Source of the DNA: a virus
Taxonomy: Duplodnaviria; Heunggongvirae; Uroviricota; Caudoviricetes
Virus record (IMG/VR): IMGVR_UViG_3300035701_000014
Strand: one strand, 5' to 3'
Length of the DNA stretch: 64,000 bases
This document shows positions 3,380 to 16,518 of the stretch, in pieces (the stretch's first letter is position 1; each line of letters starts with the position of its first letter). Below the pieces are notes generated by a model. The model had not been told where the DNA came from. It searched no databases and worked only from the letters and a program-made list of their open reading frames with translations. Position numbers and translations under genes: made by a program.

Positions 3380-4081
3380 ATGGGAACTGAGGAGCTCGGA
3401 GACAGGATGAAAAGATACGAAGGGGCTAGTCTATACAAGCTGCCAATCAGGATGCCGATAATCCTGAGAGTCGACGGCAAGTGCTTCCAGAAGTTCCTCG
3501 GCAATGCGGAGAAGCCATACGACTTCATCTTCAGGAAGAACATGGATGTCGTGGGGCTGAATGTAATCCGTGAGATTCAGGGTGCGGTGATGGCATACCT
3601 GCAGAGCGATGAGATTTCTTTCCTGATTACTCCATACACCAGCTTGGACTTCCAGCCTTGGTTCGACAATGAAGTGCAGAAGATGGCTTCGGTTGGTGCG
3701 AGCCTTGTCACAAAGGAATTCAATGCACTCGGGATGTTTGGTGATGCCTGTTTTGATGCTAGGGTATTCGTCCTTCCGAAAGAGGAGGTCGTGAACTACT
3801 TCATCTGGAGGCAGAGGGACTGGGAGACCAACTCATTACAGATGCTGGCTAGAAGCCTGTTCTCGCACAAGGAAGTGGAAAACAAAAGCAACCTCGAGAT
3901 GAAGGAGATGGTAAAGACAAAAGGCGAGGACTGGGATTATCTGGATGATTGGATTAGAAGGGGCAGGGTGGTATTCAGGAATCCGATTACTGTTGATATT
4001 CCCCCAAGATTCGAAGAGGATAGGGGGTATATAAACAAATTAGTTTATCCAGAGCCTGAAGAGGAAAGAGGGAGACCATGA
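3380..4081 (+). CDS. tRNA-His guanylyltransferase (Thg1)-like 3'-5' nucleotidyltransferase
   Basis: 233 aa; IILRVDGKCFQKF, AYLQSDEISFLI, RVFVLP..YFIWRQRDWETNSL align with Thg1-family conserved blocks (from memory of THG1L). Confidence 0.8.
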   Translation: MGTEELGDRMKRYEGASLYKLPIRMPIILRVDGKCFQKFLGNAEKPYDFIFRKNMDVVGLNVIREIQGAVMAYLQSDEISFLITPYTSLDFQPWFDNEVQKMASVGASLVTKEFNALGMFGDACFDARVFVLPKEEVVNYFIWRQRDWETNSLQMLARSLFSHKEVENKSNLEMKEMVKTKGEDWDYLDDWIRRGRVVFRNPITVDIPPRFEEDRGYINKLVYPEPEEERGRP

Positions 4082-5067
4082 AAACAAAAAATGAAAAGAA
4101 GAACATAGTCAGCTTTCCAACTTCATGGGGAACTGTCAGTTTCAACAAACCCAATGCAGAGAAGGTATGTCCATATTATGCAAAAGAAGGGCTTACTTTT
4201 GAATGCGATAGACCACGTTCCAATTGTAAAAAATGCCTTGATGATAATGAACAAGAAAACAGAAAGAGCCAGCAAAGTTATTCCTCACCATTGCAGGACG
4301 ATACTTGCCACGTAGGAATCACAGTTATGGAGGGCTCTGAGCTGATAGGCAAAACAAAGTCGGACATCCTGACGCAATATGGGGTGATAACAGAGAGCAT
4401 AGCAGAACCAAGAGAAGAAGGAAAAGTAGAGTTCGTCGATGTAGTCTCTCCTTACTCCATGTTAACAATAAGCGGGGAACAAAAGAAAGTTGAGAGAGTT
4501 ATCAGAGTCGGGATTCCAGATGACAAAAAGCAATTAGAAGAGATTGCAAAGAACAAAGATGTCCAGTATTTGCTCCTGATACTCAAAACATTGGGGAAAG
4601 TTGAAGGGCGTTTGAAACTGATGAAGTTATTGGAGCTCGTTAAAGAAGAGATGAAACCAGCCCCCACTAAAATAGGTTTTTGTAATTATTGTGATAAAGA
4701 AGGGAAGATAGTAGCAACATGGAAAACCAAGGAAGGATGGGTAAGAACTATTTGTGAGAAATGTTCTGATAATCCAAAACAAGCAAAAACCCAAGCCATA
4801 AATAATGAAAGAAGGAAAGTAATGGTCTGCTGCCAATGCGGAGCAATAGATGATAGTTATTCTGCCTACTGCGGAAGGTGTGGCAGAGTCCCGCATACGG
4901 TAATCGAGATTGATAAGAAAACTGCATCCGTAATATTCAATGCAATCTTTGAAACGGAGTTTGAAGGACTAGATACGCCTATGTGCGATATGGACGCAAG
5001 GACACTGCAGAACTTTTGGAAGAGGATGAAGGAGTTAAGACACCAATTCGGAGCTGATAAGAAATGA
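4078..5067 (+). CDS. hypothetical protein with several zinc-ribbon Cys clusters
   Basis: ORF track 329 aa; several CxxC pairs; start overlaps the Thg1-like stop. Confidence 0.5.
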   Translation: MKTKNEKKNIVSFPTSWGTVSFNKPNAEKVCPYYAKEGLTFECDRPRSNCKKCLDDNEQENRKSQQSYSSPLQDDTCHVGITVMEGSELIGKTKSDILTQYGVITESIAEPREEGKVEFVDVVSPYSMLTISGEQKKVERVIRVGIPDDKKQLEEIAKNKDVQYLLLILKTLGKVEGRLKLMKLLELVKEEMKPAPTKIGFCNYCDKEGKIVATWKTKEGWVRTICEKCSDNPKQAKTQAINNERRKVMVCCQCGAIDDSYSAYCGRCGRVPHTVIEIDKKTASVIFNAIFETEFEGLDTPMCDMDARTLQNFWKRMKELRHQFGADKK

Positions 5068-5206
5068 CAACTTGTGAAACTTGCAAATACTTCATATCCC
5101 GCAAGCTTGAGAGGCAGGCAGGAGATGGCGTATGCCTAAACCCAAGTTCATCACATAAATATGTCAGCAAGTCTGACATCTGTGAGCTGGCTGAGAATCG
5201 TGATGG

Positions 5207-5638
5207 GTGAAACAAATGCACAAGAAAGGTTTTGATGCAGAAGGGAACACACGCCTATCCCAGTTCATGGAAGATGCAAAGGAGCAAATCATGACCGAGA
5301 CACAGTTCAAAAAGCTCAAGCAGATAATTGTCAGGGAACTGCAGAGGCTGCCGTATACACGTGGCAATGACACATTGCTTATATATAACGTGTGGGTTGA
5401 CTTTTACCATGTGAGGTTTCCCGTGTCGTTCAAGAAGCTGATGAGCATACCGACTCCAGAAAGCATAACCCGATGCAGGCGATGGATAAATGAGTTCGGG
5501 GTCGTGATTGACGGACAAGTGCATAGATTCCTGCCGAGACCTGAAACCATAGCCAAACGCAGGAGAAGGCAGGAAGTGATAAAGCAGATAGCAAGATACG
5601 AAAAGAAATATGGAGCGGAGTATGATTATTCATTATAA
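5207..5638 (+). CDS. hypothetical protein
   Basis: ORF track 143 aa. Confidence 0.45.
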   Translation: MKQMHKKGFDAEGNTRLSQFMEDAKEQIMTETQFKKLKQIIVRELQRLPYTRGNDTLLIYNVWVDFYHVRFPVSFKKLMSIPTPESITRCRRWINEFGVVIDGQVHRFLPRPETIAKRRRRQEVIKQIARYEKKYGAEYDYSL

Positions 5639-5647
5639 GGTGGAACT

Positions 5648-14935: not shown

Positions 14936-15101
14936 TGAATATTGCCACTGCTACGATTTAGAAGTTGGGCGATGTGTGCATTCTGGTAAGATAGTAGGTT
15001 GCCATCTGAGTTTAGTTAATGGTTGTTGTGGAGGATACATAACTGAAGGATACCTAAAGAAAATTCGTGAATATCAGAAAGGAATTGAAAAGGGTGTATA
15101 A
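14919..15101 (+). CDS. small Cys-rich protein
   Basis: ORF track 60 aa. Confidence 0.3.
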   Translation: MMTMDDEYCHCYDLEVGRCVHSGKIVGCHLSLVNGCCGGYITEGYLKKIREYQKGIEKGV

Positions 15102-15336
15102 AATGGACACCGCAACTCAGATATACATTACCTTTGTGATAATGGGCATTGCGATATGTGTCCCGTTCTTCTATTTCCTAGCAGGGCATACCTTCCCGCT
15201 TACAATCTGCACCCAAGGCGAATGCAGCACAATATCGTTGCAGCAGGGTCAGTTGATTGGCATCGCAATGGGAATTGTCATGGGGTTTTTCTTCCCGTTC
15301 ATATTCATAAACTTTGAGGTGCTTCCAACTCCATAA
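15067..15336 (+). CDS. small membrane protein
   Basis: ORF track 89 aa, two hydrophobic helices. Confidence 0.3.
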   Translation: MNIRKELKRVYKMDTATQIYITFVIMGIAICVPFFYFLAGHTFPLTICTQGECSTISLQQGQLIGIAMGIVMGFFFPFIFINFEVLPTP

Positions 15337-15639
15337 TCCAAGAGGGGATGGAAATGAAACTATATTGCCATGTTTGCAATCTGGAATACGATACCGCTAT
15401 GGGTGATACTGCTTGCCCTTTATGCGGAAGGGAGATGGACAAAAATCCAAGAGGCAACAGGACATATATGCAGTTAGCAAATTGAGGTGGGATGAATGGA
15501 TGGCAAGTTCAAAACATTGGATGAAGAACTGATGGAAGCGTTTAAGAAAAGAAGGATTGAAATCATATCATACACCGTAAGACCAATACCTGATAGCAGC
15601 CAACTTGAATGGAAGATTATCGGGAAGCATGGTGATTAA

Positions 15640-16518
15640 ATGCAATGGGAACACTATATCGAACTCGAGCCGTATGTGCGTTTGAGAAATGAGGGGCGTG
15701 AGCTCCTAGGGAAAGAGATAGTGGTAACCGAGAAGAGGGATGGGGAGAACGTCTCGGTATGGCTCGATGAGAACAACAACATCAGGGTCTCAAGCCACAA
15801 CCAGATAGACGCAGCACAGGACATAACGGACAGGATGAAGAAGACCCCAGAATGGGCGAAGATAACCGAAGCCCTGAAGTATGAGCGGGAGAATTTCAAA
15901 AAGGATTACATCGTATTCGGGGAGTTGCTGAAGCTGACAAGCCCGACAAGGATAGAACGCAGGAGGAAGCACGTCCACTGGGTCATATTCGACATAAGGG
16001 ATTTGTCTGAGAACAGATACCTTGATTACAATTTTGTTTATCAGAGAGCATACCAATGGAGGATTCCCGTTGTGCGTGCTATGGGAGTCGAAGTGGCAAA
16101 GGAACTGGAGGAGCTCGCTGCGATAAAAGAGAAATGGCTGAAGTGGTGCAAAAGGCATTCTAGGGAAGGGTTCGTAGGGAAATGCTACCACGAACAGATA
16201 TTCTTCAAGGAGAAGATAGACCTCCCGAAACTGAAGAGGATTCCCCATCCAGACTTGCATGGAATCATACTGCCACCGATGCCAGAGGAAAGGATACTGC
16301 GTGCCCTTCAGCATGCTTTCGATGAGCTTGGGCAGGATGAGGAGAAATGGAAGGACAAGATAATCGCCATGCCAGTGATAGCTCGGCACATCTCAACAGA
16401 GGCAGCAGAGCACGACTTCGCACCTCCGCACAACTTCTATGGTTACTATATAAATACTCCAATCGAGAAGATAAAAGCAAAGGAAGGTGATTTGAATGAA
16501 AAACAAAAAACTGAATGA
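15640..16518 (+). CDS. ATP-dependent RNA/DNA-ligase-like nucleotidyltransferase (probable RNA ligase)
   Basis: 292 aa; motif I TEKRDGEN (KxDG), motif IV-like EGFVGK, downstream Lys-rich motif V region. Confidence 0.55.
   Translation: MQWEHYIELEPYVRLRNEGRELLGKEIVVTEKRDGENVSVWLDENNNIRVSSHNQIDAAQDITDRMKKTPEWAKITEALKYERENFKKDYIVFGELLKLTSPTRIERRRKHVHWVIFDIRDLSENRYLDYNFVYQRAYQWRIPVVRAMGVEVAKELEELAAIKEKWLKWCKRHSREGFVGKCYHEQIFFKEKIDLPKLKRIPHPDLHGIILPPMPEERILRALQHAFDELGQDEEKWKDKIIAMPVIARHISTEAAEHDFAPPHNFYGYYINTPIEKIKAKEGDLNEKQKTE

Follow-up and report, generated by a model that had tools for sequence, protein, structure and literature searches.

The window analysed here is a 64,000-nt stretch of the IMG/VR virus record IMGVR_UViG_3300035701_000014, whose source contig is at least 81 kb long. 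The GC content of the window is 43%, and its coding strand is strongly purine-rich. Four enzyme genes are located on the plus strand in the left part of the window. They encode a Thg1-like protein (TLP; 3380..4081), a Pol-beta-type nucleotidyltransferase of the RlaP family (10478..11485), a stand-alone calcineurin-type metallophosphoesterase (MPE; 13226..13768) and an ATP-dependent RNA ligase (15640..16518). A YAcAr-type SLOG domain protein is encoded directly before RlaP on the same strand (10104..10481), and an array of 22 tRNA genes is located on the minus strand (46766-50116), about 30 kb away from the enzymes. An earlier note on this DNA, made from the sequence alone, had described the four enzymes and the tRNA array as a toolkit for the repair of RNA ends. 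Profile searches upheld all four of its family assignments (Thg1, RNA_ligase, PF10127 and Metallophos). The Pfam matches fall on exactly the open reading frames (ORFs) that had been named, the PHROGs matches are concordant, and the quoted motifs (KxDG and EGFVGK of the ligase, GS..SDxD of the nucleotidyltransferase) are found in the translations.

RlaP, YAcAr, MPE, the RNA ligase and TLP

RlaP gives a full-length match to PF10127 with E 9.4e-51 (173 bits against a cut-off of 23). The motif G[GS]-x9-13-DxD is present as GSRGWGFASEDSDYD (GS...SDYD), and an extra tail of ~80 residues is found at the C-terminus. The closest RlaP clade shows 52-62% identity; its members have ~255 residues and cover ~75% of the query. 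The YAcAr gene (Pfam YAcAr, E 6.3e-07, 29.6 bits against a cut-off of 28.2) is absent from the earlier note, and its stop codon overlaps the RlaP start. The gene neighbourhood of RlaP was compared using the three closest relatives on long contigs (L138, L139 and L140; 57-61% identity). In L138, an MPE homolog, RlaP, YAcAr and an Rnl1-type ligase are located inside 6 kb. RlaP and the YAcAr gene overlap in L139, where a PF09414 ligase gene is also located inside the same 3 kb, and in L140 a Metallophos gene abuts RlaP. The YAcAr homologs adjoining RlaP show 42% identity to that of the window in L138 and 36% in L139. The distance between RlaP and the ligase is 4.2 kb in the window, with the ligase downstream, at most 2.5 kb in L138 and L139, and 3 kb in the ligase-bearing locus L008. 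These results indicate a recurrent module of RlaP, YAcAr, MPE and an RNA ligase that can come from different families; TLP and the Ro60 protein described below are separate additions. Because the ligase family varies between the RlaP loci while the grouping persists, the linkage appears to be functional rather than inherited. Enzymes of the RlaP family have been shown to extend the 3'-OH ends of damaged RNA by one or two nucleoside monophosphates, an activity compatible with RNA ligases of the 5'-phosphate type (PMC12776372). The recurrence of RlaP with MPE and a ligase fits a pathway in which an RNA end is healed, extended by nucleotide addition and sealed.

The MPE consists of 180 residues and matches Metallophos_2 (E 1.3e-10), Metallophos (E 1.7e-05) and phrog_547 (E 4e-38). 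All five metal-binding motifs are present (DLHLGH, HLGDF, GSHD, LIHD and CGHVH). The nearest relative of solved structure is the uncharacterised protein aq_1665 (1xm7; E 1e-4), the match to YfcE is weak, and no Pnkp chain is found among the structure-database matches at E <= 0.1. According to these matches, and with no kinase domain detected in the window, the Pnkp-type label that the earlier note had offered for the protein lacks support. L138 has an MPE homolog near RlaP, and L011 has one near the ligase. The MPE may be an end-healing enzyme that acts on 3'-phosphate or 2',3'-cyclic-phosphate ends.

The RNA ligase consists of 292 residues, with a nucleotidyltransferase (NTase) domain and a helical C-terminal domain of ~90 residues. 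It matches RNA_ligase (PF09414) with E 4.8e-17; the match to Rnl1 (PF09511) is borderline, and the DNA-ligase family PF01068 is not matched. Motifs I (KRDG), III, IIIa, IV (EGFVGK) and V are all present and invariant in 20 homologs, the invariant residues being K32, D34, G35, G94, E95, F117, D118, E176, G177, V179, K181, K190 and K192. An AlphaFold2 model of the ligase (mean predicted local distance difference test score, 88.8) was used for a Foldseek search. The Rnl3 enzymes (2vug, 8uce and 5d1o) are ranked first with E ~1e-10, followed by Naegleria Rnl5, T4 Rnl2 and Rnl1 down to 1e-7, and DNA ligases appear at ~1e-5 (6e-6 or weaker). According to the PF09414 match and this ranking, the protein that the earlier note had called ligase-like belongs with the RNA ligases, and not with the DNA ligases or capping enzymes. 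The ligase profile matches Rnl3 and Rnl5 structures in the PDB with E ~1e-4. Against the Rnl3 family TIGR01209, however, the ligase reaches 19.9 bits where the cut-off is 136.9, and the structure alignment with Rnl3 gives a template modelling (TM) score of 0.47 with a root-mean-square difference of 16 over the full alignment. The ligase is not filed as Rnl3 because its 292 residues lack the four-domain architecture of ~380 residues found in Rnl3, and because its matches are far below the family thresholds. Judged from its motifs and predicted fold, it is an RNA ligase of an undescribed clade.

Neither the PHROGs nor the NCBIfam library contains a family that matches this ligase clade. No GenBank bacteriophage record matches it, and a single-protein scan of IMG/VR with the ligase gave no match. 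The sole match in the phage collection is a virus assigned to Methanofastidiosa (vir521), and the sole match among GTDB species genomes is a contig of a Bathyarchaeia metagenome-assembled genome. The surroundings of 11 distinct ligase loci were examined over 10 kb on each side, with vir521 read for 50,000 of its 50,465 bases. An RlaP-like gene is found at one locus (L008) and an MPE gene at one (L011); TLP and tRNA genes are found at none of the 11. The neighbouring gene content is wholly different among the ligase-bearing contigs.

TLP matches Pfam Thg1 (PF04446) with E 2.5e-23 (82.8 bits against a cut-off of 29.2) and phrog_4717 with E 8e-70. The closest solved structure is that of the Bacillus thuringiensis TLP (BtTLP; 4kgk), with E 5e-45 over residues 4-200, compared with E 1e-13 for the Methanosarcina TLP (5axk) and E 3e-7 for human Thg1. 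The catalytic segments RVDG (residues 30-33) and SDE (residues 76-78) are present, and D32, G33, S76, D77 and E78 are invariant in 18 homologs. The anticodon-reading motif HINNLYN of eukaryote-type Thg1 is absent, the matching stretch being WRQRDWETNSLQML. By these sequence features, TLP is classed as a bacterial/phage-type member of the 3'-5' nucleotidyl-adding family, and not as a bona fide eukaryotic tRNA-His guanylyltransferase. Viruses often carry TLP genes, which are found in 164 phage records of GenBank and on at least 564 contigs of IMG/VR; metagenomic TLPs number more than 7700. A single-protein scan of IMG/VR with TLP gave no match. Co-occurrence was examined at 80 viral IMG/VR loci centred on TLP, over 10 kb on each side. 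MPE is found at four loci, Ro60 at two and any tRNA at 11, and neither RlaP nor this ligase is found at any of the 80. TLP is not linked to the RlaP module and is a separate addition. The co-conservation on which the earlier note had depended holds for RlaP, YAcAr, MPE and the ligase, which recur together; it does not extend to TLP, and the four enzyme genes do not form one block. In the metagenomic relative L018 (49% identity), a weak RNA_ligase match is located 450 bp downstream of TLP. The closest relative is L017 (60% identity); its TLP gene is directly preceded, on the same strand, by at least 19 arrayed tRNA genes.

A Cys-rich protein of 329 residues is encoded at 4078-5067 (plus strand), its start codon and the stop codon of TLP overlapping as ATGA. 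Pfam, PHROGs and NCBIfam give no match to it. A homolog was not detected by tblastn in L017, where the downstream ORF is cut by the contig end. The protein carries GSELIGKT, a Walker A match at chance level. Together with a Walker A match in a 53-residue ORF it was considered as a candidate P-loop kinase; two such matches are at about the chance level (an estimated ~0.5 expected), neither has family support, and neither was accepted. A candidate 2H phosphoesterase beside the ligase was also rejected, as the HxT/S matches in the 'ORF' 16815-17336 are an artefact of a translated 36-nt periodic array.

The four enzyme genes might also form no functional unit at all. They would then be independently acquired, individually mobile accessory genes that happen to share a 13-kb part of a gene-dense early region. 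The MPE might, for example, act on second-messenger nucleotides, and the ligase might have unrelated RNAs as its substrates. The low local co-occurrence around the TLP and ligase homologs, the completely different neighbours of the ligase genes and the ~20 unrelated small ORFs between the four enzyme genes agree with such an origin. Phage calcineurin-like phosphodiesterases have, in addition, been proposed to degrade cyclic-nucleotide signals (PMC7824862). However, RlaP, YAcAr, MPE and ligase genes are grouped in all three of the closest RlaP neighbourhoods although the ligase families differ, and the overlap of the YAcAr and RlaP genes is observed in both the window and L139. We consider this explanation rather unlikely.

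tRNA genes, introns and the host

Of the 22 tRNA genes, 19 were found by ARAGORN, two more (101 nt each) by Rfam, which finds 21 in total, and a 123-nt tRNA-Leu gene by reading; the count given in the earlier note is correct. The array covers 19 amino acids, with Ala missing, and CCA is not encoded. A gene for an HNH endonuclease (phrog_5351; 46828-47478, minus strand) and small ORFs are interspersed among the tRNA genes, including short ORFs with Shine-Dalgarno sites at ~48430-48600 and 48890-49290 on the minus strand. The array of L017 likewise holds Cys-rich, HNH-like ORFs.

Three of the tRNA genes, all on the minus strand, contain an intron at position 37/38. In tRNA-Cys(GCA) (49934..50034; ARAGORN intron mode, Rfam tRNA 59 bits), the 26-nt intron shows bulge-helix-bulge (BHB) geometry, with bulges AG|A and AA|A, three of four pairs in the central helix and an outer helix of 8 bp. 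This quality is reached by 1 of 20000 shuffled introns. In tRNA-Gln(UUG) (49677..49777; Rfam tRNA 48.9 bits), the 28-nt intron shows a relaxed BHB with all four central pairs formed (one GC and three GU), which is reached by 449 of 20000 shuffles. In tRNA-Leu(UAG) (48143..48265; found by reading and by a weak end match of the tmRNA model), the 40-nt intron shows a canonical hBHBh' with four of four central pairs and an outer helix of 9 bp, and none of 20000 shuffles reaches it.

L017 has introns in two of the isoacceptors that it shares with the window, Gln and Leu. Its tRNA-Gln intron has 38 nt with the central helix CUUU/AGAG (182 of 20000 shuffles reach it), and its tRNA-Leu intron is reached in the BHB register by 5 of 20000. 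In this register, the 5' bulge is formed by N36, N37 and the first intron base, and the 3' bulge by two intron bases and A38. The 4-bp helix pairs positions 32-35 with the intron bases n-5 to n-2, and an outer helix is formed within the intron. All five pre-tRNAs, three from the window and two from L017, fit the register with three or four of the four central pairs. The tRNA-Leu genes of the window and L017 were compared with each other; in this alignment of two sequences, all 71 cells of the cloverleaf-plus-BHB model pair. Two changes in the intron helix are double-compensatory and four are one-sided, and slid controls pair at 34-56%. The three introns appear to be of the archaeal BHB type, two of them conserved in a relative, and cleavage by EndA is predicted. 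The exon/intron pattern of tRNA-Leu gave no match in either the metagenome contigs or the viral contigs. Other introns reported by ARAGORN at the viral TLP loci L068, L082 and L110 are located at non-canonical positions and are likely false positives. Six matches of an intron-core 17-mer in IMG/VR were all chance matches.

Two further tRNAs bear on the host. tRNA-Tyr(GUA) (50045..50115, minus strand; ARAGORN drawing and sequence) is class I with a short variable arm, C1:G72 and A73, and the tRNA-Tyr of L017 (378-450) also has C1:G72. tRNA-Met(CAU) (49782..49855, minus strand; ARAGORN drawing and Rfam coordinates), which is the only CAU tRNA of the window, is initiator-like, with A1:U72 and a GGG/CCC anticodon stem. 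A class-I tRNA-Tyr with C1:G72, which is recognised by tyrosyl-tRNA synthetase (TyrRS), and an initiator tRNA with A1:U72 are archaeal (or eukaryal) identity features. The bacterial tRNA-Tyr is class II with G1:C72.

tRNA-His(GUG) (47492..47564, minus strand; ARAGORN drawing) has an encoded G at position -1 and an irregular acceptor stem, and its Rfam score of 42.4 bits is the lowest but one. The acceptor stem can be drawn with the mismatches A5.C68 and U7.C66 or, if one U is bulged out, with all 7 bp formed. The irregularity is kept in L017 (1985-2056), where the discriminator may be A instead of C, depending on the register. A scan with a tRNA-His 17-mer gave 30 loci, all of them chance matches; no tRNA is present where the 17-mer matched. 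Several tRNAs of the array have the T-loop UGCAARU instead of UUCRAAU, with G where the nearly universal U55 is expected; examples are tRNA-His, tRNA-Gly-UCC (49452-49522), tRNA-Glu-CUC (48680-48752) and tRNA-Gln (49677-49777).

These features raise the question of whether the enzymes serve the tRNA genes of the element itself. TLP would then set the 5' end of tRNA-His, or of other tightly packed members of the array, and MPE and the ligase, together with a kinase, would splice the introns without host RtcB. The haloarchaeal myovirus HGTV-1 is described with tRNAs for all amino acids except His, and a Thg1-like enzyme is not among its described genes (PMC13532342); its Rnl2 ligases are suggested, in the account of Liu et al. 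(PMC8651126), to act in tRNA intron removal. In L017 the TLP gene abuts the tRNA array, and both the irregular tRNA-His acceptor stem and the tRNA introns are conserved. Nevertheless, a tRNA gene is found within 10 kb at only 11 of the 80 viral TLP loci and at none of the 11 ligase loci, and vir521 has the ligase and no tRNA gene in the bases read. The tRNA-His gene already encodes G-1, and a kinase is not found in the window. The products of EndA are substrates of RtcB, which makes an ATP-dependent ligase unnecessary. A role confined to the maturation of the element's own tRNAs has a small but real chance of being correct.

According to the BHB introns, the class-I tRNA-Tyr with C1:G72, the tRNA-Met with A1:U72, the archaeal-type PCNA, the distribution of the ligase and the TTTAWATA sites, an archaeal host is quite probable. 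The PCNA sliding clamp (7264-8184, plus strand) gives a full-length NCBIfam match with E 4e-22 and has an N-terminal extension of ~60 residues. Its sole match in the GenBank phage collection is a virus assigned to Methanomicrobiales. The motif TTTAWATA occurs 27 times in the window where 5.8 are expected, a window-wide enrichment of about five-fold (e.g. at 18689, 20620, 26888, 46137, 50275 on the minus strand, 60069 and 60107). The sites are often located in gaps upstream of ORFs, and one is ~160 nt upstream of the first tRNA. This enrichment is compatible with archaeal TATA boxes. In L017, GGTTTAWAAATAG-like boxes are located ahead of ORFs. We infer the host from the tRNA features, the PCNA and the distribution of the ligase. 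The window is probably an accessory, non-structural part of a large virus-like element, which most probably replicates in an archaeon.

Shine-Dalgarno-like motifs are located upstream of 67 of the 136 ORFs of the window. As they are present at half of the ORFs, a eukaryotic virus is excluded. A bacteriophage with an unusual tRNA set has also to be considered. Its introns would be of the 'enigmatic' kind of the Lak megaphages and would be removed by some phage or bacterial activity; short tRNA introns are reported in these Prevotella megaphages (bioRxiv 10.1101/356790). The Shine-Dalgarno-like motifs would suit a bacteriophage, as would the relatives of TLP, RlaP and Ro60, which are mostly from phages or bacteria. 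However, the BHB geometry is placed exactly at 37/38, the tRNA-Tyr and the initiator-like tRNA depart from the bacterial pattern as described above, the PCNA is of the archaeal type, and all assignments seen for the ligase clade are archaeal. Shine-Dalgarno use is, moreover, common in many archaea too. A bacteriophage is very unlikely.

Ro60, Y-RNA-like hairpins and other features

The Ro60-like protein that the earlier note had included in the toolkit is real, although it is located outside the 3380-16518 span to which the toolkit had been assigned. The gene (28466..29878, plus strand) encodes a Ro60 ortholog with a TROVE domain (Pfam TROVE, E 3e-25) and a vWA domain (VWA_2 and vWA_Ro60). By tblastn it shows 54% identity to a protein of the huge phage LR745206 and 31% identity to one of the archaeal virus HGTV-1. 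LR745206 was considered as a relative of the window and rejected: only Ro60 is common within 41 kb, and its GC content is 29%.

Y RNAs have been reported beside Ro60 genes in bacteria and phages (Chen et al., 2014; PMC4201824). In the window, four tandem Y-RNA-like hairpin units (28046..28441, plus strand) were recognised as repeat families in an ORF-free gap of ~400 nt directly upstream of Ro60. The units are spaced by 92-123 nt. Both bulged and unbulged stems are found, and the stem arms covary between the units. Downstream of the 5' arm is a UACUUC box, and downstream of the 3' arm an (A)AUUUYCYUC tail. The motif GRKWTACTTCW occurs seven times where 0.7 are expected, and four of these occurrences are in 28046-28441. 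Y-like units in other genomes were located by a descriptor scan in Python, and the same architecture is found upstream of Ro60 in L130 (19500-19860) and L072 (14660-14890). These two viral genomes, LR745206 and an IMG/VR contig (3300013121_000012), are unrelated and have only Ro60 in common with the window; the UACUUC box and the tail recur in their hairpins. One hairpin unit of the IMG/VR contig holds a T-arm-like element. The Rfam models YrlA and Y_RNA do not match the hairpin units of the window. It is plausible that these units are the Y-RNA partners of Ro60.

Further genes on the plus strand, according to family annotation, encode two ParB_N proteins, an SPFH/Band 7 protein, a radical SAM/SPASM enzyme and a 509-residue protein with two TFIIB-type zinc ribbons (30604-32284, 32623-33801, 39801-41081 and 41749-43278). 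Three arrays with a strict period of 36 nt are located at 470-874, 16853-17584 and 45740-46038 (plus strand), with ~12, 21 and 9 units. The unit consists of TGCGAGCCA, 9 variable nt, a TGAAACCCA-like segment and 9 variable nt, and TGCGAGCCA with at most one mismatch occurs 48 times where 10 are expected. One array begins 335 nt past the ligase stop codon. The 'ORFs' 432-920 and 16815-17336 are translations of such arrays. Iterons, a centromere or an array of processed small RNAs are possibilities for their nature. Outside the window, the left flank (L129) contributes 10 kb in which all ORFs are unannotated and a capsid or terminase gene is not seen. In the extension of the window, a 913-residue ORF is without a record, and the rightward neighbour is a 3.3-kb contig only. 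A megablast search with 3000-17000 of the window against GenBank phages gave no match.

Proposed role and comparison with known systems

We favour the following explanation, which is reasonably likely: a supply of tRNAs and the repair of RNA ends together keep translation running during infection. The 22 archaeal-type tRNAs encoded in the window would provide the supply, and the three with BHB introns would presumably be spliced by host EndA and RtcB ligase. Repair would be performed by the recurrent module, that is, the YAcAr-SLOG protein, RlaP, the small MPE and the ATP-dependent RNA ligase. After a cut by a host RNase, one side of the break would end in 5'-OH and the other in a 3'-phosphate or 2',3'-cyclic phosphate. 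The MPE may convert the broken 3' end to 3'-OH, and RlaP may restore one or two lost nucleotides there. The 5' end would be phosphorylated by a kinase that was not found in the window and may be host-encoded or undetected, and the RNA ligase would then seal the break. TLP would act separately, extending or repairing tRNA 5' ends in the 3'-5' direction with the 3' strand of the acceptor stem as the template; a candidate substrate is G-1 of the viral or host tRNA-His. Ro60 and the four Y-like RNAs may handle misfolded or damaged RNAs. The earlier note had directed the toolkit against tRNA-cleaving toxins such as anticodon nucleases. As a reading of RNA repair this is reasonable; the bacterial anticodon nucleases PrrC and RloC, however, are not a relevant threat because the host is probably an archaeon.

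Several observations weigh against this explanation. A polynucleotide kinase, a 2H phosphoesterase, RtcB, EndA and a CCA-adding enzyme were not detected in the 64-kb window, and the heal-and-seal pathway is therefore incomplete as encoded. The tie of the MPE to RNA ends is its gene neighbourhood only. The ligase is mostly found alone among its 11 loci, and, as described above, neither RlaP nor this ligase accompanies TLP at the 80 viral loci. The host assignment has no CRISPR spacer or provirus match and rests on the tRNAs, the PCNA and the ligase distribution. The protein phylogeny does not point to Archaea, because TLP is of the bacterial type and the relatives of RlaP and Ro60 are mostly bacterial or from phages. 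No structural or packaging gene was seen in the window or in the 10 kb upstream, so that even the viral nature of the element is something we infer.

In a more speculative scheme, tRNA biogenesis and repair would be self-contained in a large archaeal virus lineage. RlaP, MPE, the ligase and an unrecognised kinase would splice the pre-tRNAs, or re-join host-cleaved tRNAs, without host RtcB, and TLP would complete the 5' ends. The introns could then lock the viral tRNAs away from host anticodon nucleases until the viral machinery is in place. This scheme we regard as doubtful, and we retain tRNA supply together with RNA-end repair by the recurrent module as the preferred explanation.

The earlier note had called the combination of these enzymes in a mobile element unusual. 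This does not stand, as the same components occur together in jumbo phages (Iyer et al., 2021; PMC7824862). There, RNA ligases, RlaP genes that track the ligases, sporadic Thg1, ROT/TROVE proteins, YAcAr SLOG proteins, phosphoesterases and large tRNA arrays are described (section 3.4.9), and the RNA-repair set is proposed to counter host tRNA cleavage (PMC7824862, which cites Burroughs & Aravind, 2016). The window resembles the jumbo phages in the list of parts and in the proposed purpose, although calcineurin-like phosphoesterases are rare in them. It differs in its probably archaeal host, in a ligase clade that is unmatched in GenBank bacteriophage records, in the absence of a kinase-HAD Pnkp, 2H or RtcB component and in the BHB introns of its tRNAs.

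HGTV-1 is described with 34-36 tRNA genes, one of them with an intron (PMC8651126, PMC13532342), and the genes for tRNA metabolism reported for it encode Rnl2-family ligases, RtcB, a CCA-adding enzyme and a lysyl-tRNA synthetase (PMC8651126). As an archaeal virus with a large tRNA set, RNA ligases and a Ro60 homolog (31% identity), it resembles the element studied here. It is haloarchaeal with GC-rich tRNAs (55% on average), whereas the GC content of the window is 43% overall; it also differs in having no tRNA-His and, among its described genes, no Thg1-like enzyme.

In T4, Pnkp and Rnl1 repair the tRNA-Lys cleaved by PrrC, and the logic is the same, as the 3' and 5' ends are healed and then sealed by an ATP-dependent RNA ligase. 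A member of the RlaP family, NrdC.11, is encoded by T4 as well (PMC12776372). Unlike T4, the window has no bifunctional kinase-phosphatase, its phosphoesterase is of the calcineurin type and not of the HAD type, and Rnl3 and Rnl5 are closer to its ligase than Rnl1 is. The archaeal Rnl3 enzymes (Pab1020, 2vug; MthRnl, 5d1o; Palaeococcus, 8uce) and Naegleria Rnl5 give the best matches to the NTase domain of the window ligase, with motifs I-V in common. However, the window ligase has 292 residues, compared with 375-389 for Rnl3 and 340 for Naegleria Rnl5, and the identity is 15-19%. Only the NTase domain superposes (TM score ~0.5), and the C-terminal helical domain has no assigned counterpart.

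BtTLP and the window TLP both keep the catalytic carboxylates and lack HINNLYN; the window TLP differs in being encoded by a probable archaeal virus, and the TLP gene of its closest relative adjoins a tRNA array. The Rsr-YrlA type of Ro60/Y ribonucleoprotein (PMC4201824) resembles the window in its protein with TROVE and vWA domains and in adjacent RNAs, candidates in the case of the window, whose two ends pair to close a long stem. The window differs in that its short tandem units number four and show no evident tRNA-like domain.

Nearly everything established about virus-encoded RNA repair comes from bacteriophages, and the described archaeal-virus example is the tRNA-gene set of the halovirus HGTV-1. 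Compared with these systems, what is new here is that a virus which is probably archaeal and non-halophilic has this composition, that the ligase clade has no described member, and that BHB introns are conserved across viral relatives. If the host assignment is correct, a non-halophilic lineage of archaeal viruses has built an equivalent kit from different parts, namely a bacterial-type TLP, the module of RlaP, YAcAr and phosphoesterase, a new ligase clade, and Ro60 with Y-like RNAs. The element would then also show that viral tRNA genes can hold conserved archaeal-type introns. The three pre-tRNAs, the odd tRNA-His and the compact ligase are offered as substrates for biochemistry, and the tRNA features provide a way of recognising archaeal viruses in metagenomes.

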